64,000 nucleotides of DNA from a bacterium (GTDB lineage Bacteria > Sysuimicrobiota > Sysuimicrobiia > Sysuimicrobiales > Kaftiobacteriaceae): assembly GCA_044868695.1 (NCBI GenBank), contig JBIOWP010000084.1, forward strand, positions 11,659-75,658, in the 5' to 3' direction. The notes under the pieces were generated by a model, which did not search any database, was not told the DNA's origin, and saw only the letters and a program-made list of their open reading frames with translations. Positions 1 to 51,542 of this stretch are shown here, piece by piece (the stretch's first letter is position 1; every line of letters begins with the position of its first letter). The position numbers were made by a program, and so were the translations under genes.

Positions 1-752
1 TCGAGCGCGACGATCTCGCGATTCTGCTCGAGCAGTGCCCGTTTGACGGCAAGTTCATCGGCAGACGTTGCCAGAGTCTCGCGTGCCGCCGACAGGTCGA
101 CCCGCAGCCGGTCCCCCGCTGCGGCGCTGGCTACCAGGCGGCGCTGTTCATCTCGCAAGGCAGCAGCCCGCTCTTCCAGGGTCCGGAGGATCCCCGGATC
201 TTTGGTCAGCGCTTTCGTGCCCTTCTCCATTGCCCGGACGTGCTGCTCCAGCCGGCGGATCGCGGTGGCAACGTCCTCGCCCCCACCCCCGACGATGCGG
301 CCGAGTTCTTTGGCGATGCTGGTCTCTTGGATGCGCACTAGCTCCGCCTGAGCCACCTGCGCCGTCGCCTCGAAGAGGACTTCGGTCATGAGTCCGACCT
401 GCGCCACCAGGCGCTCCTGGACGACTTTGTGCTGGTCCCAGACGCGGCCGAGGTCGTCCTGCAGCGTCACTTTTCGCGAGGCGAAATCTTTGGTGAGGAC
501 AAACCGTTTGCCTTCGACCTCAAACTCCAGTTCCAGCAGAGGCGGATCTTCGGCGTCCCACCTGCGAAACTCGTCGCGGGACTTGGCCGACGTCGTGGCG
601 GGATTACCGTACAGCGCCGTCCGGATGGCCGTCCGCAGCGAAGACTTTCCGCTCTCATTCGGGCCGACGATCACGTTCAGCCCGGCGGCAAAGTCGAATA
701 CCTCATCGGGGAGACCGAGGAATCGCCGGGCGCGGAGATGCCGCAGGATCAC
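1..752 (-). CDS. sbcC: DNA double-strand-break repair ATPase SbcC/Rad50, N-terminal part; continues beyond the window start
   Basis: Minus-strand translation from about 752 gives MILRHLRARRFLGLPDEVFDFAAGLNVIVGPNESGKSSLRTAIRTALYG, a Rad50/SbcC Walker A. GTG start overlaps the sbcD stop by 4 nt (GTGA). Missing from the ORF track because it runs off the window edge. Confidence 0.8.
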   Translation of the reverse strand, partial: MILRHLRARRFLGLPDEVFDFAAGLNVIVGPNESGKSSLRTAIRTALYGNPATTSAKSRDEFRRWDAEDPPLLELEFEVEGKRFVLTKDFASRKVTLQDDLGRVWDQHKVVQERLVAQVGLMTEVLFEATAQVAQAELVRIQETSIAKELGRIVGGGGEDVATAIRRLEQHVRAMEKGTKALTKDPGILRTLEERAAALRDEQRRLVASAAAGDRLRVDLSAARETLATSADELAVKRALLEQNREIVAL

Positions 753-1864
753 GACAGCACCTCGCGGCCCTGCAGCAGCGCGACGCCGACCTGGAGTGCT
801 TCTTCCAGCACCGGCCGCTGGCTCTCCTCGGCTTCGGCCAGGCGCTCCCGCATGAGGCGCGCAAACCGGCCGAGCACGCTCTCGTCCGGGAGCCGGCCCA
901 GTTGCTCGTCATCCAACCATAGCTGCACGCGGGACGACACTCGCAGGCGGAAGAACCGGTCGGTCAGCTCCCGCTCGATGGCCTGCGCGTCGACGACCCG
1001 GTCGACCGGCGCTAGGCCGGCCAGCACCACGTCGCAGACCGCGTCCGGATCCGCCGCATCCTCGATCGCCTTTCGCAGGGCGGCATCATCGAGCGCGCTC
1101 ACGTCGAGATCCAGCTTCTTGTATTGGCGGCGCCCCACGCGGACCGCGGTGACGGCGGCGCGGCCCGGCTCGGAAACCTCGACCAGCAGCGCGTGTCCGG
1201 CTCCCTCCTGGTCGTAGGCCAGCAGCTCCGGGGAGCCCGCATACCAGGCCGCCGGCGAGGCGGTGACTTCAGATGCGGAATGCCAGTCCCCCAGCGCCAG
1301 GTAGTCGAGCCCCAGATCGCGGATTTCCTGCGGATGGATGGTGGCCGTGCCTTCCACCTGCCCCCCGCGGTAGGCAGAGCCGTGCGTAACCCCGACTGCA
1401 AACCGTGTGCCGCGCTCCCGCGGCCAACCGGCCAACGGGCTGGCCGGCGTGCCGGGTTCGGGTGACCGGCCCGTAATGGTGAGGTCGAGTTCGGGGATTG
1501 GGTGCGAGACCACTGTGCGGCCGAACAGCAGGACGCGCGACCCCGCGTGACGCAGGCGGTCGCTGCCGCCGACGAACCCGTCCGGAGCCACATCGTGGTT
1601 GCCCGCCACCAGCGCGGTCCAGATCCCGCGGTCATCCAGCCGCCGCAGCTCGCGTTGGACGAGGTCTAGCAGCGCCAGCGACGGCCGCGGGCTGTCAAAG
1701 AGATCGCCGGCGATCACGACCACCTGGACCTCCCGGGCCAGCGCCAGGTCCACCGAGCGCACGAAGGCATCCTCGAGGGCGCGGCGTTGGGCGGCTCCCT
1801 GCGCGCCCAGCATGTGAAAGGCTTTGCCCAGGTGGACATCGGCGAGATGCAGCAACCTCAGCAT
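749..1864 (-). CDS. sbcD: nuclease SbcCD subunit D (Mre11-like metallophosphoesterase)
   Basis: 371 aa. N-terminal LHLADVHLG and GNHD calcineurin-like phosphoesterase motifs. Immediately upstream of sbcC. Confidence 0.85.
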   Translation of the reverse strand: MLRLLHLADVHLGKAFHMLGAQGAAQRRALEDAFVRSVDLALAREVQVVVIAGDLFDSPRPSLALLDLVQRELRRLDDRGIWTALVAGNHDVAPDGFVGGSDRLRHAGSRVLLFGRTVVSHPIPELDLTITGRSPEPGTPASPLAGWPRERGTRFAVGVTHGSAYRGGQVEGTATIHPQEIRDLGLDYLALGDWHSASEVTASPAAWYAGSPELLAYDQEGAGHALLVEVSEPGRAAVTAVRVGRRQYKKLDLDVSALDDAALRKAIEDAADPDAVCDVVLAGLAPVDRVVDAQAIERELTDRFFRLRVSSRVQLWLDDEQLGRLPDESVLGRFARLMRERLAEAEESQRPVLEEALQVGVALLQGREVLS

Positions 1865-1867
1865 CGC

Positions 1868-4800
1868 CTACTCTTCCTCAAGGTCGGGGTCGCCCGTGGC
1901 CGTGTACGGACAGATGGACGCGAAGGCACAGTACCGGCAGGCGCGGTAGAAGTCAGGCGTCGCGATGAACTGCCCGGCGCGGATCCCGCCGGCGACGCGT
2001 TCAATGATCGCGGCGGTCTTCTCCAGCGCCTCAGCGTCGGGCACGGCGGTGCCGACCAGCACCTGCTGCGGGCCCAGGAAGTGCAGCTCCAGGCGGGTCG
2101 GCAGCGCGCCGTAGACCTCGCGATACGCCAGCGCGTAGAGCGCGAGCTGCAGACTCTCGCGGGCGCGGCGGTCGGCGTCCTTCTGCGCGCGGACGTCGGA
2201 GGTCTTGAAGTCGATCAACACCACTTCGTCCCCCCGCAGGTCCACGCGGTCCCAGCGGCCCTTCACGCGGGTGAGGCCGACCTGGAATGAGAACGGCGCT
2301 TCGACGAACGTAGGCACCCGGCCGCTCGTTTCCTGATATTCAAAGAAGCGCGCCAGGACCTCGCGGCCCTCCGCCATCCGCTGGTCCTCATGTTCCCGGC
2401 TGATGAATCCTTCGTTGACCCACGCCCGCTCGAATGAGCCGACCAGGTCGTCCAGGGTAATGAGCTGCCGGCGCGCTTTGCGGCGATGGTACTCGCGGAT
2501 CGCCTCGTGAATCGCCAAGCCGTAGACGACCCGGTGGTCGCGCAGCAGCGGGACGCGCAGGATGTGCGTGTACTTGTACTTCAGCGGGCACAGATCGTAG
2601 TCGTCGACCTGCCGGTAGGAGAGGAAGATGGGCTGGTCCGGCGGGATGAGCCCCGCCAGCCCCTGCTGCCCGTTGGCCGACGGGGCGTGGCGGTGGATAG
2701 CCTCGACCGGGGACGCATGGAATGCCGTCGTGTCTGCCTTGGGCAGGTCGAGCGCCTCCAGCACGAACCGGCTCACTTTGCGAGCCCGCACGCCGCCGTA
2801 GTCCCGTGCGCTGGTCAGGTACAGCTCGCGCTGGGCGCGCGTCATGGCGACGTAGAATAGCCTGCGTTCCTCTTGGAGGTGGAAGTCGCCGCTGGGCAGG
2901 ATGTCCTTGATCAGCGGCCCCGGCAGGGCGATCGGTTCCCCGCGGTGGCGGGTCGGAAAGCGGTCGGCCACGCAGTTGACTAGGAAGACGATGGGAAACT
3001 CCAGTCCCTTGGCTTTATGGACGGTCAGGATGTTGACCGCGTCCTGATCCACCTCGGCCTCGGCCACCGCGGGATCGTCGCCCGCGGCGATGAGGTCGTC
3101 CATGTGCTTGACGAACTCCGGGACGCGGTCGTAGGCGGCGATCTCCCCGTACCGGGCGACGAGGTCAAAGAATTTGGCTAGATTGGCTACGCGGACCTCG
3201 TCGTCGGCGAGGCCGCTCGTGGCCAGGCGCCGGACATACCCGGTACGGGTCACGAGGTACTCGTAGAGGACTCGGCCGGTCGCATGATCGTTCATCACCC
3301 CGCGCATCTCTTCCAGGTCGTTCAGCAGCTTGCTGATCGCGGCGCGGCTCTCCGGGGCAATTTCTTCGACAAGGTCGGCGGATGCGTCGAGGTGCCGGAA
3401 GACGTGCTCGAGCGTCCGGTGCTTGCGGTCGGCGTAGCTGAGGGCCTTGGCCAGGTCGGTGGCCGAGATTAGGTATAGCGGAGAGACGCCCAGATAGTAG
3501 AGGCTCAGGTTGTCCCCGGGCTTGGCCAGGGCCCGCAGGAAGGCCAGGGCGAGGCGAATTTCCTCCCGATTGTACAGGCCGCGGCTGCCGGTGAACCGGA
3601 ACGGCACCCCCCGCATGTTCAACGCGCGCATGAATGGGTCCGCGTCGGCGTTGCTGCGGACGAGGACCGCGCAGTGTTTGTAGGCACAGTCCCCCCGTTC
3701 GACTTTCTGGGCAATCTGCTGGGCGACCCAGTCGGCCTCCCCGCTGAGCGTGTCCAGGTGCACGTGTTGGGGCGCCTGACCGTCGACCCGCACCGCGCGC
3801 AGGCGTTTGTCGAGGTCGCGCCGGTCTTCCAGGCGGTCGGGATTGTTGTGCTGGATCAGGCGGTAGGCCGTATCGAGAATCCCCTGATGCGAGCGATAGT
3901 TGGTGGTCAACACTACCTGCGCGGCCTGCGGGAAGACGTCGAGGAAGTTGAGGATGTTGCTGATCGCGGCGCCCCGGAACTTGTAGATGGACTGGTCGTC
4001 GTCGCCGACCACGGCAATGTGCTGGGGTCCGTCGTCCCCGACCAGCAGCCGCACCAGCTGGAACTGTGCGTAGTTGGTGTCCTGGAACTCGTCGACCAGG
4101 ATGTACGTGAAGCGTTCCCGGTACTCCCGCAGCACCGCCGGTCGCTCCCGGAGGAGCCGCAGCGTGTGGGTGATGAGGTCGCCGAAGTCGACCAGCCCCT
4201 CTTTGGCCAGCAGTTCCTGGTAGCGTTGGTATGTCAGCGCGAGCTCCTGCTGCTGGCGGGCCAGGTCCGCCAGTTCGCGGTCATCCGGATGGGCCCGGGC
4301 TTCCGCGATGACCCGGTCGGCGTGCGCGCGATACTCGGCCGGACTGGCGTCCTCGTCCTTCGCCCGGGAGATCAACGCGATCAGGGTTTCGATGTATCGT
4401 GTCGGGTCGCCCAGCGGCCGGTAGACGTCGAGCGGAAATTCAAACAGGTGCTCCCGGAAGAAGATGACCTGCTCGGCTTTAGTCAGCACGCGGAAGTCGG
4501 GGGACAGGCCCAGCTCCAACGCATGGTCCCGCAACACCCGGTCGCCGAAGGCGTGGAAGGTGCTGATCCAGACGTCGGTGTACCCGTAGGGCACGAGGAC
4601 ATCGACGCGCTCTTCCATCTCGGCCGCGGCCTTGTCCGTGAAGGTGAGGGCGAGGATCTCCGCGGGCCGCGCTCGCCGGGTGGCAATCAGCCAGGCGATC
4701 CGCCGCGTGATGACCGCCGTCTTGCCGGTGCCGGCCCCGGCGACGATCAGCAGCGGCCCCGAGGCGTGCGTGACGGCCCGCCGCTGCTCGTCATTGAGGT

Positions 4801-4921
4801 CGGCCAGGATCCGGTCGTCGAGAGGGACCGGGGCAGCGGCCCGGTCTGGTGCGGTCAGTTCCAGCGGCAGCTGGCCCGGCGGGCGGGCGTCGATGGTGAG
4901 GGGATGGCGTCGGTCCGGCAT
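1868..4921 (-). CDS. UvrD/PcrA-family superfamily-1 helicase fused to a C-terminal Cas4/AddB-type PD-(D/E)XK Fe-S nuclease (AddAB-like single-chain helicase-nuclease)
   Basis: 1017 aa. Walker A AGAGTGKT, motif II DEFQDTNYAQ, other UvrD motifs. C-terminal nuclease with CPLKY, IDFK, QLALYA and CRYCAFASICPY (1+3 Cys). The ATG overlaps the recX stop by 1 nt. sbcD follows after 3 nt. Confidence 0.85.
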   Translation of the reverse strand: MPDRRHPLTIDARPPGQLPLELTAPDRAAAPVPLDDRILADLNDEQRRAVTHASGPLLIVAGAGTGKTAVITRRIAWLIATRRARPAEILALTFTDKAAAEMEERVDVLVPYGYTDVWISTFHAFGDRVLRDHALELGLSPDFRVLTKAEQVIFFREHLFEFPLDVYRPLGDPTRYIETLIALISRAKDEDASPAEYRAHADRVIAEARAHPDDRELADLARQQQELALTYQRYQELLAKEGLVDFGDLITHTLRLLRERPAVLREYRERFTYILVDEFQDTNYAQFQLVRLLVGDDGPQHIAVVGDDDQSIYKFRGAAISNILNFLDVFPQAAQVVLTTNYRSHQGILDTAYRLIQHNNPDRLEDRRDLDKRLRAVRVDGQAPQHVHLDTLSGEADWVAQQIAQKVERGDCAYKHCAVLVRSNADADPFMRALNMRGVPFRFTGSRGLYNREEIRLALAFLRALAKPGDNLSLYYLGVSPLYLISATDLAKALSYADRKHRTLEHVFRHLDASADLVEEIAPESRAAISKLLNDLEEMRGVMNDHATGRVLYEYLVTRTGYVRRLATSGLADDEVRVANLAKFFDLVARYGEIAAYDRVPEFVKHMDDLIAAGDDPAVAEAEVDQDAVNILTVHKAKGLEFPIVFLVNCVADRFPTRHRGEPIALPGPLIKDILPSGDFHLQEERRLFYVAMTRAQRELYLTSARDYGGVRARKVSRFVLEALDLPKADTTAFHASPVEAIHRHAPSANGQQGLAGLIPPDQPIFLSYRQVDDYDLCPLKYKYTHILRVPLLRDHRVVYGLAIHEAIREYHRRKARRQLITLDDLVGSFERAWVNEGFISREHEDQRMAEGREVLARFFEYQETSGRVPTFVEAPFSFQVGLTRVKGRWDRVDLRGDEVVLIDFKTSDVRAQKDADRRARESLQLALYALAYREVYGALPTRLELHFLGPQQVLVGTAVPDAEALEKTAAIIERVAGGIRAGQFIATPDFYRACRYCAFASICPYTATGDPDLEEE

Positions 4922-5565
4922 CAGTCGGTGTCCTGCGGCAGCGAGCCCACCGTGTCCCGGAGGACACGGGCGATCACAGACGTCGAGAATCCGCGGCGTT
5001 CCAGGAGTCCCGCCAGCCGGCGGGCAGCCACCTCGCGGCTCAGGCCGCGGTATCGGCGCAGCCGGCTGCGCGCCACGTCCTGCGCGAGCGCATCCTCGTC
5101 CTGCTCACTGAGACGTTCGCGCAGCGTCCTGTCGATGACCTCCCGCGCGACGCCCTTGCGCGCGAGCTCGTACCGGAGACGGACGCGGCCCGAAGGCTGC
5201 AATGCAGTCCGGCTGCGCACCCAGGCGTCCGCGAAGCGGTGGTCATCCACCAGCCCCGCGTGTTCAAGATCGGTGATGACGGCGGCGACCACCTCAGCGG
5301 GAAGACCCCGCCGGCGCAGCCGGTCGGCCAGTTCCCGGCGGCTGCGGGGGCGGATAGCCAGCAGACGGTAGACGGTTTCTTCTGCCAGCGCCCGCTCTCC
5401 ACGCGCCCGCACCTGCGCGAGCGCGGTCTCGTCAATGTCGGCGCCGGTGGCAAGCCCGAGCGCGTTGACATCCTCCGGCCGCAGGCGAAACGTCCCGCCG
5501 GTGTCCAGCACCACGCGCCGGTGGCCGAGCCGGCCGCGGCTCGGACCGATATGGACGACGTTCAC
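4921..5565 (-). CDS. recX: recombination regulator RecX
   Basis: 214 aa. RecX-like three-repeat helical protein immediately downstream of recA. Confidence 0.85.
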   Translation of the reverse strand: MNVVHIGPSRGRLGHRRVVLDTGGTFRLRPEDVNALGLATGADIDETALAQVRARGERALAEETVYRLLAIRPRSRRELADRLRRRGLPAEVVAAVITDLEHAGLVDDHRFADAWVRSRTALQPSGRVRLRYELARKGVAREVIDRTLRERLSEQDEDALAQDVARSRLRRYRGLSREVAARRLAGLLERRGFSTSVIARVLRDTVGSLPQDTD

Positions 5566-5570
5566 CCCTG

Positions 5571-6626
5571 CTACGCCCTGCCCTTTGCCGGCTCCCTGGC
5601 GGGCGGCGCCTCGCGGACTTCGGCCGGCGCGGGCGATTTGATCAGTCCCAGGTGCGTGCGCACGCGGCGCTCAATCTCTCGCGCCAGTTCCGGGTTCGCG
5701 TCCAGAAAGTCGCGGGCATTGTCGCGTCCCTGGCCCAGTTTCATCTCACCGAACGCGAACCAGGTGCCCGTGCGCTGGACGATGCCGTGCACCGCGGCCA
5801 CGTCGAGGAGACTGGCGGCTTTGGAAATTCCGCGTCCGTAGAAGATGTCGACCTCTGCCTCGCGAAACGGCGGAGCCAGCTTGTTCTTCACCACCTTGAC
5901 CCGCGCGCGCATGCCCTTGAGCTCTTCCCCGACTTTGATGCTCTCCGTCCGCCGGATCTCCATGCGCACCGACGCGTAGAACTTCAGCGCCCGGCCGCCG
6001 GTGGTGGTTTCGGGATTGCCGAACATGACGCCGATCTTCTCACGGATCTGGTTGATGAACACGACGGTCGTGTGGGACCGGCTGATCGCGCCGACCAGTT
6101 TGCGCAGCGCCTGCGACATCAGCCGCGCCTGCAGGCCCATGTGCGCGTCGCCCATGTCGCCTTCCAGTTCGGCTTTGGGGACCAGCGCGGCGACCGAATC
6201 GACGACGATGATGTCGACCGCGCCGCTGCGCACCAGCATCTCGGCGATCTCCAGCGCCTGCTCACCGGAGTCCGGCTGGGAGAGCAGCAGGCCGTCCACG
6301 TCGACGCCTACGGCCTTCGCGTAGTTGGGATCTAGCGCGTGCTCGGCGTCGATAAACGCCGCCACCCCACCCTCGCGCTGCGCCTCGGCGATGATGTGAT
6401 ACCCCAGCGTGGTCTTGCCGGAGGACTCGGGCCCGTAGACTTCGATCACGCGGCCCCGCGGGACCCCGCCGACGCCCAGGGCGATGTCCAACGCCAGAGC
6501 ACCGGTGGAAATGACCTCGACGGCCAGCTTAGCGCTGGCCTCTCCCAGCTTCATAATGGAGCCTTTGCCGAACTGCTTCTCGATCTGCGTCAGGGCGAGA
6601 TCGAGGGCCCGCTGCCGTTCGTTCAT
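5571..6626 (-). CDS. recA: recombinase RecA
   Basis: 351 aa. [10 protein letters not shown] Walker A, canonical RecA throughout. Confidence 0.97.
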
Positions 6627-6659
6627 CGACGCAACCTCCCTGCCCAGCTGTTCGCGCGC

Positions 6660-6688
6660 AGTCTACCAAACGTTTGTTCGCTTGTCAA
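6660..6688 (-). promoter_or_regulatory. recA sigma-A-type promoter (TTGACA, 17 bp spacer, TAGACT) with a Cheo/LexA box GAACAAACGTTT in the spacer
   Basis: Minus strand reads TTGACAagcGAACAAACGTTTggTAGACT about 35 nt upstream of the recA ATG. GAAC-N4-GTTT matches the Firmicutes LexA consensus GAAC-N4-GTTC at 7/8 positions. Confidence 0.5.
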
Positions 6689-6714
6689 TGACTCAGTTGA
6701 GCCGGCCGCACCTA

Positions 6715-7296
6715 CTACTTCTCGTGGCCATGGAGGCTGACCTCCTCAACCCGTGCGTAGATAGGTCCATCAGGGGTCAGATGGCTCTCCATCACCGAGA
6801 TGGTCCTGACCTCTTGGGACCCGACGGGCAGCTCCGCATGCTGGGTGAGGGCCCGGACGACATCTCCCCACTGCCGGGCATCGCGTACCCGCGCCAGCGT
6901 CAGGTGGGGTCGGAACGTGCGGTCCTCGAGCGGGAAGCGGTGATGAGCCAGCCGGTCGTCGAGCCGTTGGGCGAGCGCCTCCAGTGCCTGCGCGCCGTCT
7001 CCCACGCCGATCCACACGACCTGGGGCCGCTGGAGGCTCGGGAACGCGCCCAGGTGGGTCAGCGCGATGGCAAACGGCCGGATCCCGGCCACGGCCTCAC
7101 GTGAGGCGATTTTCGCAAGGGCCACCTGCGCGGGTGTAATCTCGCCGAGAAACCGCAGCGTAAAGTGGAGATTGCCCGGTTTGATCCAGCGGATCCTCGC
7201 GCCGGCCGCTTCCAGGCGCCGCTGTGCTTCGACGACGTGCTGGTGCAGCGCCGGGTCGAGTTCCACGGCGATGAAGATGCGGTGTCGTGCGATCAT
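6715..7296 (-). CDS. thpR: RNA 2',3'-cyclic phosphodiesterase (2H family, ThpR/LigT)
   Basis: 193 aa. Two H-x-T/S-x motifs (HFTLRF, HLTLAR). Confidence 0.8.
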   Translation of the reverse strand: MIARHRIFIAVELDPALHQHVVEAQRRLEAAGARIRWIKPGNLHFTLRFLGEITPAQVALAKIASREAVAGIRPFAIALTHLGAFPSLQRPQVVWIGVGDGAQALEALAQRLDDRLAHHRFPLEDRTFRPHLTLARVRDARQWGDVVRALTQHAELPVGSQEVRTISVMESHLTPDGPIYARVEEVSLHGHEK

Positions 7297-8531
7297 GCCC
7301 GCAGCAGATGGAGGCGCAACAGGTTGAGCGCCGCCTGTGAGGCCAGAAAGCGAATGCCTTCTCGGCCGGCTTCAGACCCCAACAGCAGCCGCCGGTGCGT
7401 CGGTCCTGCGGCACCGGCGAGAGCCAGGAAGACCAGGCCGACCGGTTTTTCGGGCGTCCCCCCGGTAGGACCGGCGATACCGGTGACGGCCAGGCCGAGG
7501 GCCGCACCCGCGCGCCGGCGAATGCCGGCCGCCATGCCCTCCGCGACCTCTGCGCTCACGGCGCCGTGCGCATCGAGGAGTGCTGGATCGACGCCCGCAT
7601 CTCTAATTTTCGCCTCGTTGCTGTAAGCCGCGACGCCCTCGAGGAAATACGTCGAGCTGCCCGGGACGGCCGTCAGGCGGTGGCTGATCTGCCCGCCGGT
7701 GCATGACTCGGCGACCGCAACCGTCAGGCGGCGCGCGGTCAGCGCGGCGGCCACCACGTCTTCCAGCGTCTGGCCGTCGACGCCGTACACGAGGTCGCCG
7801 AGCCGCTCGCGCACAAGGGCTTCGCCTCGATCCAACGTGGCGGCCACGGCGTCGGGGGCTCCCTTTGCGGTGAGTCGCAGGTGCACCTCGCCGAGCTTCG
7901 CGTAGGGCGCGATGGTGGGCTCCGTCAGCTGAAGGAGGTCCTTGATGCGGACCTCGATGGCCGACTCCCCCTCCCCCGTGACACGCAGCACGCGGGATTG
8001 GATGACGGCCGCCCCCGCCCGATCGCGCAGGGCCGGGAGCACGTACCCGTCCATCATGCCCTTCATCTCGTAGGGCACGCCCGGCATCAGGAACAGCGAA
8101 CGGCCGCGGTGCTCGATGTGGACCCCCGGCGCCGTCCCGCGGGTATTGGCGATGATGCGTGCGCCGCGCGGCACCAGCGCCTGCTTGAACACGGTATCCG
8201 ACGGTGTCCGCCCGCGGGCGTCGAAGAACCGGCGGATGTGGTCAGCGGCGCTCTCGTCCGCCACCAGGGGAAGTCCCAGCGTCGTGGCGACCGTCGCCAC
8301 CGTCAGGTCGTCTTCGGTGGGTCCCAGCCCCCCGGTCATCAGCACGACATCGGCGCGTGATAGGGCCAGGCGCGTTGCCTCTTCGATCCGCGTCGGATTG
8401 TCTCCGACGGTCTGCTTGAAGTAGACATCGACGCCGATCTCGGCCAGCCGCTGGGCGAGGTAGGCGGCGTTGGTGTCGACGATCTGACCCAGAAGGAGTT
8501 CCGTACCGACCGAAATGATCTCTGCGCGCAT
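7293..8531 (-). CDS. cinA: competence/damage-inducible protein CinA (MoCF-like domain plus PncC-type NMN deamidase domain)
   Basis: The ORF track extends it to 8732. The conserved N-terminus MRAEIISVGTELLLGQIVDTNAAYLA starts at 8531, giving 412 aa. Confidence 0.85.
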   Translation of the reverse strand: MRAEIISVGTELLLGQIVDTNAAYLAQRLAEIGVDVYFKQTVGDNPTRIEEATRLALSRADVVLMTGGLGPTEDDLTVATVATTLGLPLVADESAADHIRRFFDARGRTPSDTVFKQALVPRGARIIANTRGTAPGVHIEHRGRSLFLMPGVPYEMKGMMDGYVLPALRDRAGAAVIQSRVLRVTGEGESAIEVRIKDLLQLTEPTIAPYAKLGEVHLRLTAKGAPDAVAATLDRGEALVRERLGDLVYGVDGQTLEDVVAAALTARRLTVAVAESCTGGQISHRLTAVPGSSTYFLEGVAAYSNEAKIRDAGVDPALLDAHGAVSAEVAEGMAAGIRRRAGAALGLAVTGIAGPTGGTPEKPVGLVFLALAGAAGPTHRRLLLGSEAGREGIRFLASQAALNLLRLHLLRA

Positions 8532-8533
8532 GG

Positions 8534-9319
8534 CTAGGGTGCCGTGAATGTCTCCTCCCAGACACGTCGCCGCACGTCCGACAGCACCGGTTGGCCGTTG
8601 ACCTGCAACGAAACGGCGGTGGTGTCGCCGACGCGCACCGTGAGCCGTTCGCGTGCCCGCCAGACCTTGACCTCCCCCTCGTGCACCAGCCCCTGGAAGA
8701 TCTCCTCGTCGTCGGCGAGCACGCGCAGCCACGACGTGCCCGTCGCCTGCACGACCAGTTCCACGCCGGCGCCCGGGGTCTGACCCGCGGGCTCGCCGGG
8801 TTCTCCCGGGGCCGGCGGGTGCGCCGGTTCAGCGACCGCCGCCTCCGGCGGGGCCGGCGGCGGAACGGGTTTCGCGAACTGGCGCATCTGCTGGTACCCG
8901 ATCAGGATGAGGACGATGAAGACCAGGACCACCGCCCCGCCGATGATCATGATGATGCGCCGCACACGGGAGGGCGGCACGGCCGGCCGGATGGGCACCT
9001 CCGCGGGGAACGCCGGAACCAGCGGCTGGGCCGGCGCATCAAACGCCAGCGGATACGCCTCGATCAATTCGTCGGGGTTCAGTCCCAGGGTGGCCGCGTA
9101 GGTGCGCAGATATCCCCGCGTGTACACTGTGGCCGGCAGGCGGTCAAACTGTTCCTCCTCCAGCGCCTGAAGGTAGAGGGCGCGGATGTGTGTCAGGGTC
9201 TCGGCCGCGGCCAGCGTCAATCCTTTGGCTTCGCGCGCGTTGCGCAGGCGCTCGCCGATGCCCAGCGTCTCGGAGTGGGGGGACGGGGTCCGATGTTGCT
9301 GCACGCTGTCTGTGTTCAA
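8534..9319 (-). CDS. rodZ: RodZ-like cytoskeleton protein (XRE-type HTH, one TM helix, C-terminal DUF4115-like domain)
   Basis: 261 aa. N-terminal HTH (LGERLRNAREAKGLTLAAAE), TM segment IIMIIGGAVVLVFIVLILIG, Pro-rich linker. Sits upstream of cinA-recA as in Bacillus. Confidence 0.7.
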   Translation of the reverse strand: MNTDSVQQHRTPSPHSETLGIGERLRNAREAKGLTLAAAETLTHIRALYLQALEEEQFDRLPATVYTRGYLRTYAATLGLNPDELIEAYPLAFDAPAQPLVPAFPAEVPIRPAVPPSRVRRIIMIIGGAVVLVFIVLILIGYQQMRQFAKPVPPPAPPEAAVAEPAHPPAPGEPGEPAGQTPGAGVELVVQATGTSWLRVLADDEEIFQGLVHEGEVKVWRARERLTVRVGDTTAVSLQVNGQPVLSDVRRRVWEETFTAP

Positions 9320-9331
9320 TCACCCGAACAA

Positions 9332-10270
9332 TCAATCCTTCGGCGCGGCCGGGGTCATGTGGGAGACCGCCGCGGCCACGGCGGCGGCCAGCGCGGCGTT
9401 GGCGCGCAAAAGGGACAGGTTGGCGCGCAGCGAGCGGCCTCCAGTCCTCTCTACCAGCACGGCAAGCAGGTAGGGCGTGAGGTCGCCGCCCCGCACACCG
9501 GCGGCCCGCGCCTGCTCCGCGGCGTCGCGGACGGCGTGGTCCACTTCCTCCGCAGACAGTGCCTCAGAGACGGGAATGGGGTTGGCGATCACCACGCCCG
9601 TCCGCTGGCCAAGAGCGCGTTTTGCGGCGAGGATCGCGGCAGCCTCGTGCGTCGAGGTGATCTGTCGCGGCGCCGGGAACCCGCTGTCCTGCACGTAGAA
9701 GTTCGGAAAGCGGTCTGATCTGTACGCGACCACGGTGACCCCGGCGCTGTCCAGGTATTCGAGCGTTTTCCCGATATCGCAGACGGCCTTGGCGCCGGCG
9801 CAGACGACGGCGACCGGATGCTCGGCCAGCGCCTGCAGGTCTGCGGAGACATCCCAACTCTGCTCCGCGCCGAGGTGGACTCCGCCGATGCCCCCGGTGG
9901 CCACGACGCCGATGCCGACAAGATCCGCCACCGCGACCGTCGCGGAGACCGTCGTCCCGCCGGACGCCGCGGCTGCGGCGGCGACCGGCAGGTCACGGGA
10001 GGCCACCTTCATCGCAGCCGCGGAGATCAACCCGTTAAGTTCGTCCTGCGTGACTCCGACCCGGATCCGTCCGGCGAGGACGGCCACGATCGCTGGCACC
10101 GCGTCGGCCGCGCGGACGATCTCCTCAAGTTCTCCCGCCATCTGCAGGCCGATGGGATGGGGCAGCCCGTGAGAGACGACCGCCGACTCCAGGGCGACGA
10201 CGGGCCGGCGGCGCGCGAGCGCAGCCGCCACGTCCTCGCGGACGTCAATGAGGGGCGGCAATCTGCGCAT
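9332..10270 (-). CDS. psuG: pseudouridine-5'-phosphate glycosidase
   Basis: Indigoidine-synthase-A-like fold with PVVALESAVVSHGLPHP. Start is probably the internal Met of the 317-aa track ORF. Confidence 0.85.
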   Translation of the reverse strand: MRRLPPLIDVREDVAAALARRRPVVALESAVVSHGLPHPIGLQMAGELEEIVRAADAVPAIVAVLAGRIRVGVTQDELNGLISAAAMKVASRDLPVAAAAAASGGTTVSATVAVADLVGIGVVATGGIGGVHLGAEQSWDVSADLQALAEHPVAVVCAGAKAVCDIGKTLEYLDSAGVTVVAYRSDRFPNFYVQDSGFPAPRQITSTHEAAAILAAKRALGQRTGVVIANPIPVSEALSAEEVDHAVRDAAEQARAAGVRGGDLTPYLLAVLVERTGGRSLRANLSLLRANAALAAAVAAAVSHMTPAAPKD

Positions 10271-11195
10271 GCGCGTACAGGACACCGGGTGTGAGGTCCG
10301 GATGCACGCTGCCTTCGACCGTTGCCGTCAGGGCACCGGCGGCGCGCGCGAGGTGCGCCGCGATGCGATCGTCGAGTCCCGCCAGCAAACCGTAGACGGT
10401 CGCCGCCGCGACGGCATCCCCCGCCCCCGACGGGTCGACCACGGCGACGGGGAGGGCGGGGAGCGGGATGACCTCGCGGCCTCCCCACACCAACCCCTGG
10501 TCCCCCATCGTGACGACGACCGTCGCGTCGGGGAAGCCTCGGATCCTACCGACCGCCTGCACGGCGTCCGCGACCGCGTTGACGGGGGTTGCGGTTAAGG
10601 CAGCGGCCTCCCCGGCGTTCAGCACGACCAGCGAAGCCGCGTGGAGGTGCGCGGCGACCCGCGGCGCTTTCGCCACAGATACCGGCAGCAGACACAACCG
10701 CCGGCCGGCGGCGACACGAACGACGGCGTCGATCGTCCCCGGTGCGAGGTTGGCGTCGACCACAACATAGTCGGCGGCCCGGATGGCATCCGCGTGCGCG
10801 GTGAGGTGGTCAGGCGTGAGCGATTCCGCAGCGGTCATTTCCGAGACCGCCATGGTCGTGGAGGTTGGAGATGCGATGGCCACGTAGGCATTTCGCATCC
10901 CCGCGAGCCGGATCGCGCCGGACACGCGCACGCCAGCATCCTTCGTCCGAGTGAGCACGACTTCGGAGAGCGGATCATCGCCGACGGCGCAGATCAGCTC
11001 CGTGCGGATGCTCAGGCGGGCCAGGTTCTCCGCAACGTTGCGCCCGGCGCCCCCGGCACCGACGCGGATACGGCCCGGAGTGCTAACCTGGGGCCGGAGG
11101 GTCGGCGCGGTCGCGATGATGTCCACGTTGACCCCGCCGATGACGACGGCCGAAAACACGGGATCCCGGATCCCGGACCTTCGATCCTGGATCAT
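10245..11195 (-). CDS. psuK: PfkB-family carbohydrate kinase, probable pseudouridine kinase
   Basis: 316 aa. PfkB motifs (GGVNVD, GAGD). Adjacent to and overlapping psuG. Confidence 0.75.
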   Translation of the reverse strand: MIQDRRSGIRDPVFSAVVIGGVNVDIIATAPTLRPQVSTPGRIRVGAGGAGRNVAENLARLSIRTELICAVGDDPLSEVVLTRTKDAGVRVSGAIRLAGMRNAYVAIASPTSTTMAVSEMTAAESLTPDHLTAHADAIRAADYVVVDANLAPGTIDAVVRVAAGRRLCLLPVSVAKAPRVAAHLHAASLVVLNAGEAAALTATPVNAVADAVQAVGRIRGFPDATVVVTMGDQGLVWGGREVIPLPALPVAVVDPSGAGDAVAAATVYGLLAGLDDRIAAHLARAAGALTATVEGSVHPDLTPGVLYAHAQIAAPH

Positions 11196-11208
11196 CAGTC
11201 GCCCACGG

Positions 11209-12180
11209 TTATTCTTCCTCTTTCGTGTATGCCACGCCGTCGGCGGCCGGCATCTGGGCGCGGCGGACGAACCCGGCCAGAACGAAGATGGTCACAATCT
11301 GTGGGAGCACGCTGATGAATTGATATGGGACGGGCAGCCGCACCACGCGCAGACTCAGGGCGTCAAAGTAGCCAAACAGCGCCGACGCGCCGAGCGCGCC
11401 CACGGGCCACCAGTTCCCGAAGATCATCGCCGCTAGGGCGATAAATCCCCTGCCCTGCGTCATCCCCTCGAAGTACAGGTGGGCCTGTTCGATCGCCAGG
11501 TATGCGCCCGCCATGCCCGCCAGCGCACCGCTCGCCAGCACCCCGATGTACCGCAGCCGATAGACGCTGACGCCGAGCGTGTCGGCAGCCAGCGGGTACT
11601 CGCCGACCGCCCGCAGCCGCAGGCCGAATCGCGTCCGGAGCAGCACCCATTGGCTGAGGAGAACGAGGAGGAGTCCCACTACGATCATCGGCGAGATGCC
11701 GGTCACCAGGGGCCGCAGCAGCGGCACGTCCTTGAGCAGCGGGAGGTCGATCGGCGTGAAGCCCCGCACGCCGGGTGACTGGGTGGCCCGTTCGAACAGG
11801 AGGATGTTCAGGAAACGCGCCAGTCCGCCCGCGAGGAGGTTCAGGGCGACGCCGCTGATGATCTGATCGACCCGGAACGTGATGGTGACGAGGGCGTGGA
11901 TCAGTCCAAAGGCCATCCCCGCGGCTACGGCGGCGAGCACGCCCACCAGCGGCGCGAGGTCCGGCCGGGCCTGCGCCAGATCGGGAAAGCGTTCGGCAAA
12001 CGCGTAGGCGCCGACCGCGCCGAAGAACGTGCCCATGATCATGATGCCTTCCAGAGCAATGTTCACGACGCCGCCGCGTTCCGAGTACACGGCTCCGAGG
12101 GAGGCGAGCAGGATCGGCATCGTGACACGGATCGCCGACGCGACGAGAGCCAGGCTAAACAGGGAGGCCAGCGTGTCCAC
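11209..12180 (-). CDS. ABC transporter permease (BMP/nucleoside system)
   Basis: 323 aa polytopic membrane protein, RbsC/NupQ-like. Confidence 0.8.
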   Translation of the reverse strand: MDTLASLFSLALVASAIRVTMPILLASLGAVYSERGGVVNIALEGIMIMGTFFGAVGAYAFAERFPDLAQARPDLAPLVGVLAAVAAGMAFGLIHALVTITFRVDQIISGVALNLLAGGLARFLNILLFERATQSPGVRGFTPIDLPLLKDVPLLRPLVTGISPMIVVGLLLVLLSQWVLLRTRFGLRLRAVGEYPLAADTLGVSVYRLRYIGVLASGALAGMAGAYLAIEQAHLYFEGMTQGRGFIALAAMIFGNWWPVGALGASALFGYFDALSLRVVRLPVPYQFISVLPQIVTIFVLAGFVRRAQMPAADGVAYTKEEE

Positions 12181-12183
12181 GGG

Positions 12184-13313
12184 CTAGCCTCCGGCCGGGC
12201 TGCCGGCGGCCGCCACGGGTCCGGCCGCCTCGGCCTCACGCTTGCGCTGTGTCCGCACGTACCGCGTCAGCAGTTCGTACGCGACGACGATGGCGAGGAT
12301 GATGATCGCCTGCAGGATCACGATGATCTCCTTGGGCACGCGGGCGAAGAACTGCACCCCCGCCGCCCCGCGGTCCAGGAAGCCGAACAGCAGCGCGGCG
12401 GGGATGACTCCCAGGGGATTATTCTTAGCCAGCAGCGCGACGGAAATCCCCAGGAACCCCAGCCCCTTGGGAAAGTCGATGTCGAGGTAGCCGAAGAACC
12501 CCAGGATGTCGTTCAGCCCTACCAGGCCGGCGACGCCGGCGCTGAGCATGAACATCCAGAATCGCACGCGGGCGTTGGGGATCCCGGCGGCTTCCGCCGC
12601 CAGCGGGTTGAACGCGACGGCCCGCACTTCATACCCGAATCTGGTCCGCCCGATGAAGTAGGCCAGCACGCACGCCAGCGCGATGCCGAGCAGCAGCAAC
12701 AGGTTGAGTTTCTCCACGTCCGATCCGTGCAGCCCCAGGGGAGCCAGGAGAGGACCCATCGACGGGATCCGCGCCGCGGCGGCGACCTCGGGCGTGCGCA
12801 CACGCGGCGTCCCTACCTGCGCGGGGTCGCGAAAGACGTCGTTGATCAGGTAGAGCAGCAGCGCGGAGGCGATGTAGTTCATCATGATCGTGGTGATGAC
12901 TTCGTGCGCTCCGCGCCGCAGCTTCAAGGCGATGGGCACCAGCGCCCAGAGCATGCCTCCGGCCGCCGCCGCGGCTAGGGCCAGCGGCAGGTGGATGGCG
13001 GCCGGCAGGCCGCGGAGGCTGAACCCGACGAACGCGGCGCAGAACGCCCCGACGTAGTACTGTCCTTCCACCCCGATGTTGAACAGGTTGACACGGAACG
13101 ACGCAGCCACCGCGAGGCCCGCGAAGATGAGCGGGGTCGTCTTGAACAGGATCGAGAACAGGCTGTCGGTGCGGGTGAGGTTGAACCGGATCATCACCCC
13201 GTAAACCTCCAGCGGGTTGCGGCCAATGGCCAGGATGATGATCGAGGCGATCAGCATGCCGAACAGGATGGCCACCAGCGGCGCGGCGACCTGCACGAAC
13301 AGCAGACGATGTT

Positions 13314-13317
<4 letters not shown>
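12184..13317 (-). CDS. ABC transporter permease (BMP/nucleoside system)
   Basis: Polytopic membrane protein. GTG at 13317 overlaps the ATPase stop as GTGA. The longer track ORF (to 13356) is probably an over-extension. Confidence 0.75.
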
Positions 13318-14884
<1,567 letters not shown>

Positions 14885-14888
<4 letters not shown>

Positions 14889-15955
14889 TTCTTCAGCGTC
14901 TTCAGGAACTCCTCAAGCTGCTTCTTGTCCTCTGGGACCTTGATCTTCCCGGCGATGATGTCCTTCCGCAGCGCCTCGAGCCGGGCGGCGATGTCCTGCA
15001 CCATCGCCTTGTTGTAGTTGTTGACCGCATAGCCGACCCCGTTCTCCTTCAAGCCGAATGTGCGGACCCCGGCCTTGTACTGGCCGGCGACGGTGGCCTT
15101 GATCGTCTCGTGCACCGCCACGTCGACCCGCTTCAGCATGCTGGTGAGAATCTGCGCCCGCTGGTCCGGCTTGACCGTCAGGGACTGGTCCGCGTCTACG
15201 CCGATGGCCAGCCGCTTCTTCACGACGGCCGCTTCGAACACGCCGATGCCGGTACCGCCGGACGCGTGGTAGATGATGTCGGCGCCCCGGTCGTACTCGG
15301 CCAGCGCGAGCTCCTTGCCTTTGACAGGGTCGCGGAACGCCTCCCCGGTGGTGCCGGCGTATTCGCTGAACACCTCGATGGACGGCTTCACGTACTTGGC
15401 GCCGGCGATGAAGCCGGCCTCAAACTTCTCGATCAGCGGGATCTTCATGCCGCCCACGAATCCGATCTTGTTCGCCCTTGACTTCAGCGCGGCCGCGGCG
15501 CCCACGAGGAACGATCCCTCGTGCTCCTTGAATAGGAGGCTGACCACGTTGGGCTGGTCTCCGATGAACCCGTCTACGATGGCGAACTTGACGCCCGGGA
15601 AATCCTTGGCCACCCGAGTGATGCTGTCCGTGAACAGGAAGCCGATGCCGAAGATGAGGTCAAATTTCTCACCGGCGAGGAGGCGCAGCAGCTCCTCCCG
15701 GTTCTCGCCCCCGGCCGTGGGCTCGAGGTCGCGGGTCTCGATCCGGCTGCCGAATTCCTTCTGGGCGTTCGACAGGCCGGCATACGCCATGTCGTTGAAC
15801 GACAGGTCGCCGCGTCCGCCGACGTCGTACACGATCCCGACCCGCCACTTCTTGGCCTGGGCGACCGCCGGGGTCCCGGGCAGCGCCCATAGAGTGACCG
15901 CGACCACGACCAGCGCCGCAGCCCCGATGCGCATGCCGATTCTCATCCTCAACAC
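14885..15955 (-). CDS. BMP-family (PnrA/Med-like) ABC substrate-binding protein, nucleoside-binding
   Basis: 356 aa. Signal peptide, then the basic-membrane-protein family fold. First gene of the SBP-ATPase-permease-permease-psuK-psuG operon. The true start is probably an ATG a few codons in (AGGTG RBS). Confidence 0.8.
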
Positions 15956-16034
15956 ACCTCCCGTGGGATCACCACTATGTGGATAGAATGGGATTGGTGT
16001 GGGTATCTTCGAGTCGGCGCGGAGGAACTCCTGG

Positions 16035-51317: not shown

Positions 51318-51542
51318 CACATTTCCCCGCCGTGCCGTGAGGCAGAAGTTCCCGAACCTGCACTAAGCAGGTGGGTGCCCTCCTGGCCGCTCCTGAGATC
51401 CCCGACGTGATGGGGCGTGTCATCGGCGGTCAGAGCCCGGGCTCCCAGTGTATTCGGTGTTGGATCGGAACTATCGGCCCACACGCACACGGCAGGAACC
51501 CTGCTTACGGCCATCGTACGCCCCAGGGCACGAAATTGCAAT

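Follow-up and report, generated by a model that had tools for sequence, protein, structure and literature searches.

A recA gene cluster with a LexA-type candidate operator and a single-chain helicase-nuclease in a clade of Armatimonadota

Five tightly packed genes at the recA locus

We analyzed a 64,000-nucleotide (nt) stretch of bacterial DNA, referred to here as the window (NCBI GenBank assembly GCA_044868695.1, contig JBIOWP010000084.1, positions 11,659 to 75,658 of the forward strand). At its left end lies a recA gene cluster that may constitute a damage-inducible DNA repair operon. The listing of open reading frames (ORFs) places five genes of this cluster on the minus strand, together with thpR and cinA upstream of them. 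From recA onwards, the five genes encode RecA, RecX, a protein that combines a UvrD/PcrA-like helicase motor with a C-terminal nuclease domain, a metallophosphoesterase, and a structural maintenance of chromosomes (SMC)-like ATPase, with the following positions and lengths in amino acids (aa):

5571..6626, minus strand: recA, 351 aa (Pfam RecA, 2.9e-140; TIGR02012, 549.9 bits versus a cut-off of 325)
4921..5565, minus strand: recX, 214 aa, GTG start (matches to RecX_HTH1, HTH2, and HTH3)
1868..4921, minus strand: single-chain helicase-nuclease, 1017 aa (Pfam, NCBIfam, and PDB comparisons and an AlphaFold2 [AF2] model)
749..1864, minus strand: SbcD/Mre11-type metallophosphoesterase, 371 aa (Metallophos, 1.5e-10)
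1..752, minus strand: first 250 codons of an SMC-like ATPase of the YhaN/SbcE type, 747 aa in full, with a GTG start at 752 (AAA_23 and AAA_27; Walker A GPNESGKSS); the gene leaves the window

An earlier reading made from the sequence alone (the sequence-only reading) had proposed that recA, recX, a helicase/nuclease gene, an sbcD-like gene, and an ATPase gene form an operon. The same gene set was recovered on the minus strand in the ORFs of the window and in independent gene calls on L161, an NCBI contig of the same organism (GCA_044867385.1, JBIOUV010000029.1), which gave the same five protein lengths (351, 214, 1017, 371, and 747 aa). The full-length ATPase from L161 (P0279, 747 aa) is identical to the window product over the 250 aa of the latter. 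The range of 749 to 6688 previously assigned to the five genes has to be extended, as the fifth gene runs from 752 to 1 and thus lies outside it.

Read base by base, the four junctions consist of a 5-nt gap between recA and recX (TAG, caggg, GTG), a 1-nt overlap between recX and the helicase-nuclease gene (TGATG), a 3-nt gap before the sbcD-like gene (TAG, gcg, ATG), and a 4-nt overlap between the latter and the ATPase gene (GTGA). Overlaps of 1 to 5 nt had been claimed for every junction; the packing is indeed tight, with spacings from −4 to +5 nt, yet overlaps exist at two of the four junctions only. A Shine-Dalgarno sequence, GGGAGG, is found 8 nt upstream of recA.

A LexA-type candidate operator within the recA promoter

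A consensus scan, which covered sigma-70-like sites only, detected a single promoter-like site between positions 1 and 9500 of the window, and this site precedes recA. Its elements are as follows:

6683..6688, minus strand: −35 hexamer TTGACA (10/12 promoter matches together with the −10 hexamer; TTGAC invariant in 9 related loci)
6667..6680, minus strand: LexA-type (Cheo-like) candidate operator CGAACAAACGTTTG, within the 17-nt spacer, which reads AG-CGAACAAACGTTTG-G
6660..6665, minus strand: −10 hexamer TAGACT, preceded by TG and hence an extended −10 (TA invariant in the alignment of 9 loci)

The candidate operator agrees with CGAAC-N4-GTTCG at 9 of the 10 specified bases. The near-consensus Cheo box that the sequence-only reading had placed in the recA promoter spacer is therefore real, and it is conserved in all nine loci that were aligned (L081 to L085, L087, L088, L008, and the window). 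The left arm reads CGAAC in eight of them and CAAAC in L008, giving the consensus C(G/A)AAC-A; it is followed by three variable central bases, the right arm GTTTG, one further base, and the TA of the −10 hexamer. The box always lies between the −35 and −10 hexamers (9/9 loci), and the flanks 5′ of the −35 and 3′ of the −10 are unconserved, with a mean column identity of 43%. Fixed arms, a variable center, and a constant position within the spacer are what would be expected at the binding site of a dimeric repressor acting by occlusion of RNA polymerase, and the alignment supports the view that a Cheo-type box is under selection. The LexA motif documented for Firmicutes and Actinobacteria is GAAC-N4-GTTC, and variants of it are known from Chloroflexi and Cyanobacteria (PMC4951493); the box described here would be the first candidate LexA-type motif for Armatimonadota.

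The significance of CGAACAAACGTTTG comes from its conservation in 9/9 related loci and not from window statistics. GAACN4GTTT was observed twice in the window versus 0.55 expected, a count that 10 of 100 shuffles reached, and CGAACAAACGTTTG by itself is not beyond chance in the window; box matches with two mismatches were likewise at chance level (55 versus 46.6 expected). Three other box-like matches were rejected as operators: one at positions 522 to 533 of the window falls inside the ATPase gene, one at position 17147 of L088 lies in the rny leader and is not kept in L161, and one in L156 is inside a reverse-strand ribosomal-protein gene.

We also considered whether the palindrome could be bound by a repressor other than LexA, for example, another helix-turn-helix regulator of the damage or competence response. 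Some phyla control recA without LexA, as Deinococcus does with DdrO/PprI. Moreover, the right arm is GTTTG in 9/9 loci and the canonical GTTCG in none, and no lexA was returned when the window and a further 160 loci were searched by tblastn with LexA of B. subtilis and of E. coli as queries, so that the regulator is not tied to CGAACAAACGTTTG in the sequences searched. Against this stands the agreement at 9 of 10 bases with CGAAC-N4-GTTCG in the recA promoter, the most conserved of LexA targets, and variants of the motif are documented in neighboring phyla (PMC4951493). We thus regard binding by a non-LexA repressor as rather improbable and retain a LexA-type repressor as the preferred candidate.

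In L087, two tandem promoter-like sites are located before recA (7534-7563 and 7587-7616), and the box is present in the proximal one only. The recA gene of this locus may have both constitutive and repressible promoters.

Evidence bearing on a single transcript

Within the operon, the consensus scan showed no internal promoter-like site in any of four sequences (the window, L161, L087, and L088), and neither the window nor L161 showed a coding-strand terminator-like site there. In L088, terminator-like matches within the operon were intragenic only and occurred at chance level. None of the loci carries a second box inside the operon region: each has one promoter-like site and one box, both upstream of recA, with the additional, boxless promoter-like site of L087. 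We also rejected the idea that the recA/recX junction conceals a terminator or an attenuator, since its RNA folds no better than shuffled sequence (z = 0.58). Junction lengths run from −4 to +11 nt in the window and the loci most closely related to it. Given that no internal promoter, terminator, or second box was seen, the simplest reading is that recA, the ATPase gene, and the genes between them are transcribed together as one damage-inducible unit, and this is what we infer from the sequence.

Alternatively, the operator might govern recA only, or recA and recX only, with the distal genes expressed constitutively or from internal promoters; the locus would then be a functional neighborhood and not one SOS transcript. 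Units of recA and recX with attenuation are common, and internal promoters of other than the sigma-70-like kind fall outside the scope of the scan. In addition, the more distant loci L085, L087, and L088 have gaps of ∼50 to 290 nt at several junctions. Those of L087 and L088 are boxless and measure 122 to 293 nt between recA and recX and 102 to 151 nt between recX and the helicase-nuclease gene, and independent promoters could lie within the gaps of these three loci. This alternative is countered by the short junctions in the window and its closest relatives, by the lack of internal promoter-like sites (window, L161, L087, and L088) and of coding-strand terminators (window and L161), by the unstructured recA/recX junction, and by a gene order that is conserved over large divergence. 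Separate expression of the distal genes therefore appears somewhat unlikely to us, and the single damage-inducible transcript is kept in the model presented below.

A UvrD/PcrA-like motor and an Fe-S-type nuclease on one chain

The helicase-nuclease consists of two domains:

2807..4798, minus strand: superfamily 1A (SF1A) UvrD/PcrA-like motor, aa 42-705 (PF00580 UvrD-helicase, 1.9e-79; PF13361 UvrD_C, 2e-51)
1907..2623, minus strand: PD-(D/E)XK nuclease domain, aa 767-1005 (PDDEXK_1, PF12705, 1.1e-34)

These Pfam matches bear out the earlier description of a 1017-aa protein with a UvrD-type motor and a C-terminal iron-sulfur (Fe-S) PD-(D/E)XK domain. The motor motifs are present (Walker A GAGTGKT, DEFQD, GDDDQSIYKFRGA, TVHKAKGLEF, and VAMTRA) and invariant in 48 homologues, as are motifs III, V, and VI. 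Among curated models, the best score was obtained with pcrA (TIGR01073, 472.6 bits versus a cut-off of 911), and no model reached its cut-off; addA_Gpos (237 versus 708 bits) and recB (166 versus 696 bits) fell short of the scores that define AddA and RecB orthologues. In PDB comparisons, the motor matched PcrA (1pjr, 1.1e-94), UvrD (∼1e-88), AdnB (1.5e-65), AddA (2.2e-33), and RecB (1e-15), with 321, 301, and 225 bits for PcrA, UvrD, and AdnB, respectively. No second UvrD-like gene was found in the 64-kb window or beside the helicase-nuclease gene in the loci of the clade. We therefore rejected identity as an AddA, AdnB, or RecB orthologue, since the motor is nearest to PcrA/UvrD, the model cut-offs are not reached, and a partner subunit is missing. 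An AF2 model had a predicted local distance difference test score (pLDDT) of 75 and a predicted template modeling score (pTM) of 0.57, with low confidence at residues 994-1017, the Cys-rich tail. Compared with known structures by Foldseek, it aligned with UvrD/PcrA over the motor and with AddA, AdnA, AdnB, and RecB over ∼1000 to 1200 columns; the model backs the fold class only, not domain geometry or strand routing.

In the nuclease domain, catalytic residues E874, D891, D904-x-K906, and Q925...Y929 are invariant in the 48 clade homologues and across phyla. A loss of the catalytic D/E-x-K residues, which the sequence-only reading had allowed for, has thus not occurred. Cysteines C778 and C995-x2-C998-x5-C1004 are invariant in the 48 clade homologues and in 11 sequences from several phyla, and the invariance of catalytic residues and cysteines reaches homologues from Chloroflexota, Patescibacteria, Acidobacteriota, Aminicenantes, and Omnitrophota. 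A profile of the nuclease domain matched AdnB (1e-12), AdnA (2e-9, through the Cys region), AddB (5e-4, over the Cys region), Cas4 SSO0001 (1e-3), and an Argonaute-associated Cas4-family enzyme. These results support assignment to the AdnA/AddB/Cas4 type of Fe-S PD-(D/E)XK nucleases, the cluster itself being predicted. Judged by its motifs, the protein joins, in a single chain, a motor that looks active and a nuclease of the Fe-S type.

The homologue in L020 (Candidatus Berkelbacteria, 10001-12883) has the nuclease core but none of the four cysteines, so that at least one lineage can do without the Fe-S module.

The protein shares with the subunits of AdnAB (PDB 6PPU, 6PPR, and 7SJR) a UvrD-like N-terminal motor and a C-terminal RecB-type nuclease in one chain of ∼1000 to 1100 aa. 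AdnB and AdnA are the best PDB matches of the nuclease domain, the Foldseek alignments of the AF2 model with AdnA and AdnB span ∼1000 columns, and the four-cysteine Fe-S arrangement resembles that of AdnA (PMC13000450). In AdnAB, the Fe-S cluster resides in the nuclease domain of AdnA, which takes the 5′ strand, and AdnB has the active motor (PMC13000450); the protein described here is in effect an AdnB motor joined to an AdnA-style nuclease. In contrast to AdnAB, an obligate heterodimer of adjacent paralogues of which one has a dead motor, it is encoded by one gene and its motor looks active. The Cys-bracketed Fe-S PD-(D/E)XK design is also that of AddB, but AddAB is made of two chains and no AddB-like, Chi-scanning dead helicase exists here. 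More generally, AddAB, AdnAB, and RecBCD are encoded by two or three adjacent genes that include one helicase-like paralogue, a pattern that this locus does not follow.

The motor resembles PcrA and UvrD, helicases that remove RecA from DNA, more than it resembles AddA and RecB, and this points to another possible function. The protein might mainly regulate RecA filaments or recombination intermediates, as a PcrA/UvrD-like anti-recombinase with a nuclease that acts together with RecX. The scores against PcrA (472.6 bits with TIGR01073; 1.1e-94 with 1pjr) and UvrD are consistent with this view, PcrA and UvrD dismantle RecA filaments, and the gene lies directly behind recX, which encodes a RecA inhibitor. 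However, the intact and conserved Fe-S PD-(D/E)XK domain is otherwise typical of DNA-end-processing enzymes, an Mre11/Rad50-like pair follows wherever a locus extends past the helicase-nuclease gene, and L008, which has no recX, still has recA followed by the helicase-nuclease gene. On balance, we consider it unlikely that regulation of RecA is the main function, and resection of DNA ends remains the role that we favor.

An SbcD-like phosphoesterase and an SbcE/YhaN-like ATPase

Motifs DVH, GDLFD, GNHD, THG, and GDWH were recognized by eye in the 371-aa protein. Its score with TIGR00619 (70.4 bits) is under the cut-off of 77.65, and SbcD/Mre11 proteins of the PDB align with it over the N-terminal ∼92 aa only (E. 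coli SbcD, 1.6e-9). By these sequence features, it appears to be a divergent Mre11/SbcD-type phosphoesterase.

The fifth gene had been annotated as sbcC, and this identity did not hold. The ATPase is 747 aa long in the organism studied here and 712 to 747 aa long in seven orthologues, compared with ∼1000 aa or more for a canonical SbcC; neither the seven orthologues nor P0279 contains a CxxC zinc hook. A conserved, two-segment hydrophobic hairpin occupies the hook position at the tip of the coiled coil instead (∼aa 335-385 of P0279, and in orthologues from L082 to L088), in the part of the protein encoded outside the window, which suggests that the hydrophobic apex pair may be a device for membrane insertion or for a novel type of dimerization. 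The protein matches PF13514 (AAA_27) with 43.6 bits versus a cut-off of 22, and annotations of the Joint Genome Institute name some of the orthologues "uncharacterized protein YhaN." Identity as a canonical SbcC was therefore rejected.

We compared these features, by description, with those of the B. subtilis proteins SbcE (YhaN) and SbcF (YhaO). SbcE has no CxxC motif and a partly hydrophobic central domain, its partner nuclease is SbcF, and a role in double-strand break (DSB) repair was described (PMC2811018); in Bacillus, yhaO and yhaN are counted among the lexA/SOS genes (PMC3896406). The locus thus resembles an SbcE/SbcF system in its hookless SMC-like ATPase with a hydrophobic center, its phosphoesterase partner, and its putative association with the SOS response (PMC2811018, PMC3896406), and the ATPase appears SbcE/YhaN-like by the features described in PMC2811018. 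It differs from the yhaONM genes of B. subtilis in that no yhaM partner is found here. A second difference concerns length. We take B. subtilis YhaN to be 963 aa long, and the 747 aa of the ATPase would then imply shorter coiled coils.

Taken as a whole, the gene set recalls the Bacillus addB-addA-sbcD-sbcC cluster, in which a helicase-nuclease gene is likewise followed by genes for an Mre11/Rad50-type pair. Unlike in that cluster, the ATPase is not SbcC-like, and the genes are located behind recA and recX and a LexA-type box.

A widespread enzyme family and a clade-specific operon

At least nine loci of the clade were recovered. The contig scans used peptide patterns that are partly generic UvrD motifs, and all locus counts are lower bounds. 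The architecture of the helicase-nuclease is common to all of the best 120 listed homologues (62 to 100% identity), the named ones being metagenome-assembled genomes (MAGs) of Armatimonadota. In 8/8 metagenome loci in which the helicase-nuclease has at least 62% identity, the order cinA-thpR-recA-recX-helicase-sbcD-ATPase is kept as far as the contigs reach (L081 and L086 are truncated where their contigs end), even though identity falls to 41% for the SbcD-like protein and to 43% for RecX. The same gene order is found in L161. An Mre11/Rad50-like pair is encoded behind the helicase-nuclease gene in every locus that extends past it. In L008, the helicase-nuclease gene comes directly after recA and recX is missing.

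In three loci, recA is one ORF of 721 to 741 aa (L082, 1555-3735; L085, 7085-9307; L008, 7657-9819), and similarity to RecA is split at residues 200-234. The insert of ∼1 kb, which is most likely an intein, has no equivalent in the 351-aa recA product of the window.

The family to which the helicase-nuclease belongs is much broader than this clade. A search with the nuclease domain alone, run against representatives of 50%-identity clusters, identified 199 of them at E<=1e-30 and as many as 1501 at E<=1e-10, and most of the complete representatives measure 940 to 1060 aa and carry the nuclease domain at the C terminus. Full-length homologues were found in at least 111 loci, ∼100 of which lie outside the clade, in Chloroflexota, Patescibacteria, Acidobacteriota, Aminicenantes, Omnitrophota, and others. 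In all of these loci in which the homologue has 31 to 58% identity, recA, recX, and sbc genes are missing from the neighborhood. The neighbors of distant homologues are housekeeping genes, with RmuC encoded in 8 of the at least 111 loci. Among the matches listed, linkage to recA and sbc genes is thus confined to the Armatimonadota clade, and as the homologues are spread across phyla, the enzyme family is broad and the operon is clade-specific.

The eight loci with rmuC, a gene for a DNA recombination protein, comprise L014 (8947-9948) and seven others of Patescibacteria-type MAGs with reduced genomes, in which the helicase-nuclease gene adjoins rmuC. In several of them, another helicase gene, which is PcrA-like, lies no more than a few kilobases away.

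Fusions of this kind are not new. UvrD-Cas4-like fusions were described computationally in 2017 by Hudaiberdiev et al. as the largest pfam12705 branch (PMC5704561), and with them the protein shares an SF1 UvrD-like helicase and a C-terminal PF12705 nuclease, the match being one of architecture. We found no biochemical study of such fusions in the literature searched. They occur mostly beside type III restriction-modification (RM) or Dcm/Vsr genes, from which a role in defense was inferred (PMC5704561). The context differs here, where recA, recX, an Mre11/Rad50-like pair, and a LexA-type box are present and type III RM and Dcm/Vsr genes are not.

The helicase-nuclease could accordingly be a component of anti-phage or anti-plasmid defense that has come to lie beside recA incidentally. 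This idea draws on the published neighborhoods and on matches of the motor to the GajB models of PADLOC. Yet the PADLOC matches are generic (GajB/UvrD for the motor, LmuB/GajA for the ATPase), the SbcD-like protein and RecX match no defense model, and the PADLOC-based argument was rejected as uninformative. Moreover, type III RM and Dcm/Vsr genes are absent from the window and are not among the most frequent neighbor families in the at least 111 loci with full-length homologues; no RM, Dcm, or defense genes flank the gene here or in those loci. The guanine-plus-cytosine (GC) content is uniform, so that the region is not island-like, and the surrounding rodZ-cinA-recA...rny-ymdB backbone is conserved. 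A defense function at this locus is very improbable in our view, and we return to a role in DNA repair.

A model for damage-inducible end resection

Our preferred reading, in which we have moderate confidence, is that of a DNA-damage operon specific to a clade of Armatimonadota, in which LexA-type repression controls recA and the genes behind it, the helicase-nuclease resects DNA ends, and the Mre11/SMC-like pair assists. In the absence of damage, a repressor dimer on the spacer operator of the GAAC-N4-GTTC type would block RNA polymerase at the recA promoter. DNA damage would lead to cleavage of the repressor and to transcription of recA, probably together with the four translationally coupled genes behind it. 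The PcrA/UvrD-like SF1A motor, with 3′-to-5′ polarity, would then track along the 3′ strand from a DNA end, and the tethered Fe-S nuclease would degrade the displaced DNA. The strand removed would most plausibly be the 5′ one, so that a 3′ tail would remain for RecA. One polypeptide would thereby do the work of the two or three subunits of AddAB, AdnAB, and RecBCD. The Mre11-like nuclease and the YhaN/SbcE-like SMC ATPase may clean blocked or hairpinned ends, and RecX may temper the growth of RecA filaments. Damage induction has a parallel in adnAB, which is damage-induced.

A number of results weigh against this model. Besides the chance-level occurrence of CGAACAAACGTTTG in the window, its GTTTG arm, the lack of lexA in the sequences searched, the boxless gaps of the more distant loci, the PcrA/UvrD-like motor, and the published defense neighborhoods, they include the following. 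No second member of the regulon was found, there being no other convincing box in the window. Likewise, none of the 106 upstream regions that we examined has a convincing box, the single Cheo-like match lying inside a ribosomal-protein gene, and recA and sbc linkage is missing at the more distant homologues. Finally, AdnB, a 3′-strand nuclease with no Fe-S cluster, outscores AdnA in the nuclease domain, so that the strand that is cut is not predictable from these scores. Nevertheless, the conserved recA operon context suggests a role in recombinational repair and argues for a single-chain analogue of AddAB and AdnAB.

We also entertain, with considerable doubt, a wider reading. UvrD-Cas4-like fusions might form a fourth class of bacterial DSB-resection enzyme, made of a single polypeptide and probably Chi independent, that is used by many phyla (Armatimonadota, Chloroflexota, Patescibacteria, Acidobacteriota, Aminicenantes, and Omnitrophota) and that in Armatimonadota is wired to the SOS response with a membrane-tethered SbcE/SbcF-like complex. 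Such a system could be a counterpart of archaeal Mre11-Rad50-HerA-NurA. In archaea, mre11-rad50-herA-nurA operons coexpress Mre11 and Rad50 with a helicase and a nuclease for end resection. The folds are unrelated, however: HerA is a hexameric FtsK-like ATPase, and HerA and NurA are separate chains, whereas here an SF1A helicase is fused to a PD-(D/E)XK nuclease.

To our knowledge, bacterial DSB resection has been assigned to RecBCD, AddAB, AdnAB, or RecJ plus a helicase, and many uncultivated phyla have no assigned machinery. The locus combines elements of known kinds, namely, a LexA-type recA operon, a UvrD-Cas4-like helicase-nuclease, and an SbcE/SbcF-like pair; it is an SbcE/YhaN-type ATPase, not SbcC, that accompanies the helicase-nuclease. 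As the fusion architecture was already described in 2017 (PMC5704561), what is new is the recA operon context. The helicase-nuclease family is large, and the sole published functional inference concerns defense. No genomic argument yet available for a role in repair is stronger than the conserved, operator-linked position found here, with recA-recX on one side of the gene and an Mre11/Rad50-like pair on the other. The locus supplies a concrete enzyme and a candidate operator through which a repair function could be assigned to the family.

Flanking genes and other features

Upstream of the operon, the minus strand of the window carries the following:

6627-6714: thpR-recA intergenic region, 88 nt
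6715..7296, minus strand: thpR/ligT, RNA 2′,3′-cyclic phosphodiesterase (TIGR02258, 150 bits); adjoins recA upstream on the same strand
7293..8732, minus strand: cinA, competence/damage-inducible protein A (NF001813, 479 bits over aa 68-477); overlaps thpR by 4 nt

Transcription reading through from thpR into recA is possible, and the real start of cinA is probably near codon 68.

The wider backbone reads ftsK...rodZ-cinA-thpR-recA-[recX-helicase-sbcD-ATPase]-orf-rny-ymdB. In the window (8534-18305, minus strand), it comprises genes for FtsK, a nucleoside ABC transporter, a PfkB kinase, and a pseudouridine-5′-phosphate glycosidase, together with rodZ, cinA, thpR, and recA; rny and ymdB follow in L161 (8865-11197). 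This arrangement resembles the recA region of Bacillus, where we take the neighborhood to be rodZ-pgsA-cinA-recA-pbpX-rny-ymdB. For Deinococcus radiodurans, we assume an operon cinA-ligT-recA. The cinA-thpR(ligT)-recA order, rodZ upstream, and rny-ymdB downstream are thus shared with these recA regions, whereas recX, the helicase-nuclease gene, and the sbcD/sbcC-like genes between recA and rny are not. This comparison suggests that the latter genes were inserted into an old, conserved recA backbone. Horizontal gain of a module from recX to the sbcC-like gene was rejected, as the GC content is even at 65 to 72%.

Beyond the ATPase gene, outside the window, L161 has an 81-nt gap and a 116-aa ORF with a signal peptide, and then a strong, separate rny promoter. 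An 18-mer, GTTAATCCCCGATTGACA, occurs twice in L161 (8247-8266 and 8730-8748), each time just 5′ of a gene, the 116-aa signal-peptide ORF and rny, respectively. TTGACA inside GTTAATCCCCGATTGACA may serve as a −35 hexamer, and GTTAATCCCCGATTGACA may be a shared regulatory element. Elsewhere in the window, a 6S (SsrS) RNA gene is located at 51320-51501 on the minus strand (Rfam RF00013, 79.3 bits versus a gathering score of 46.4).

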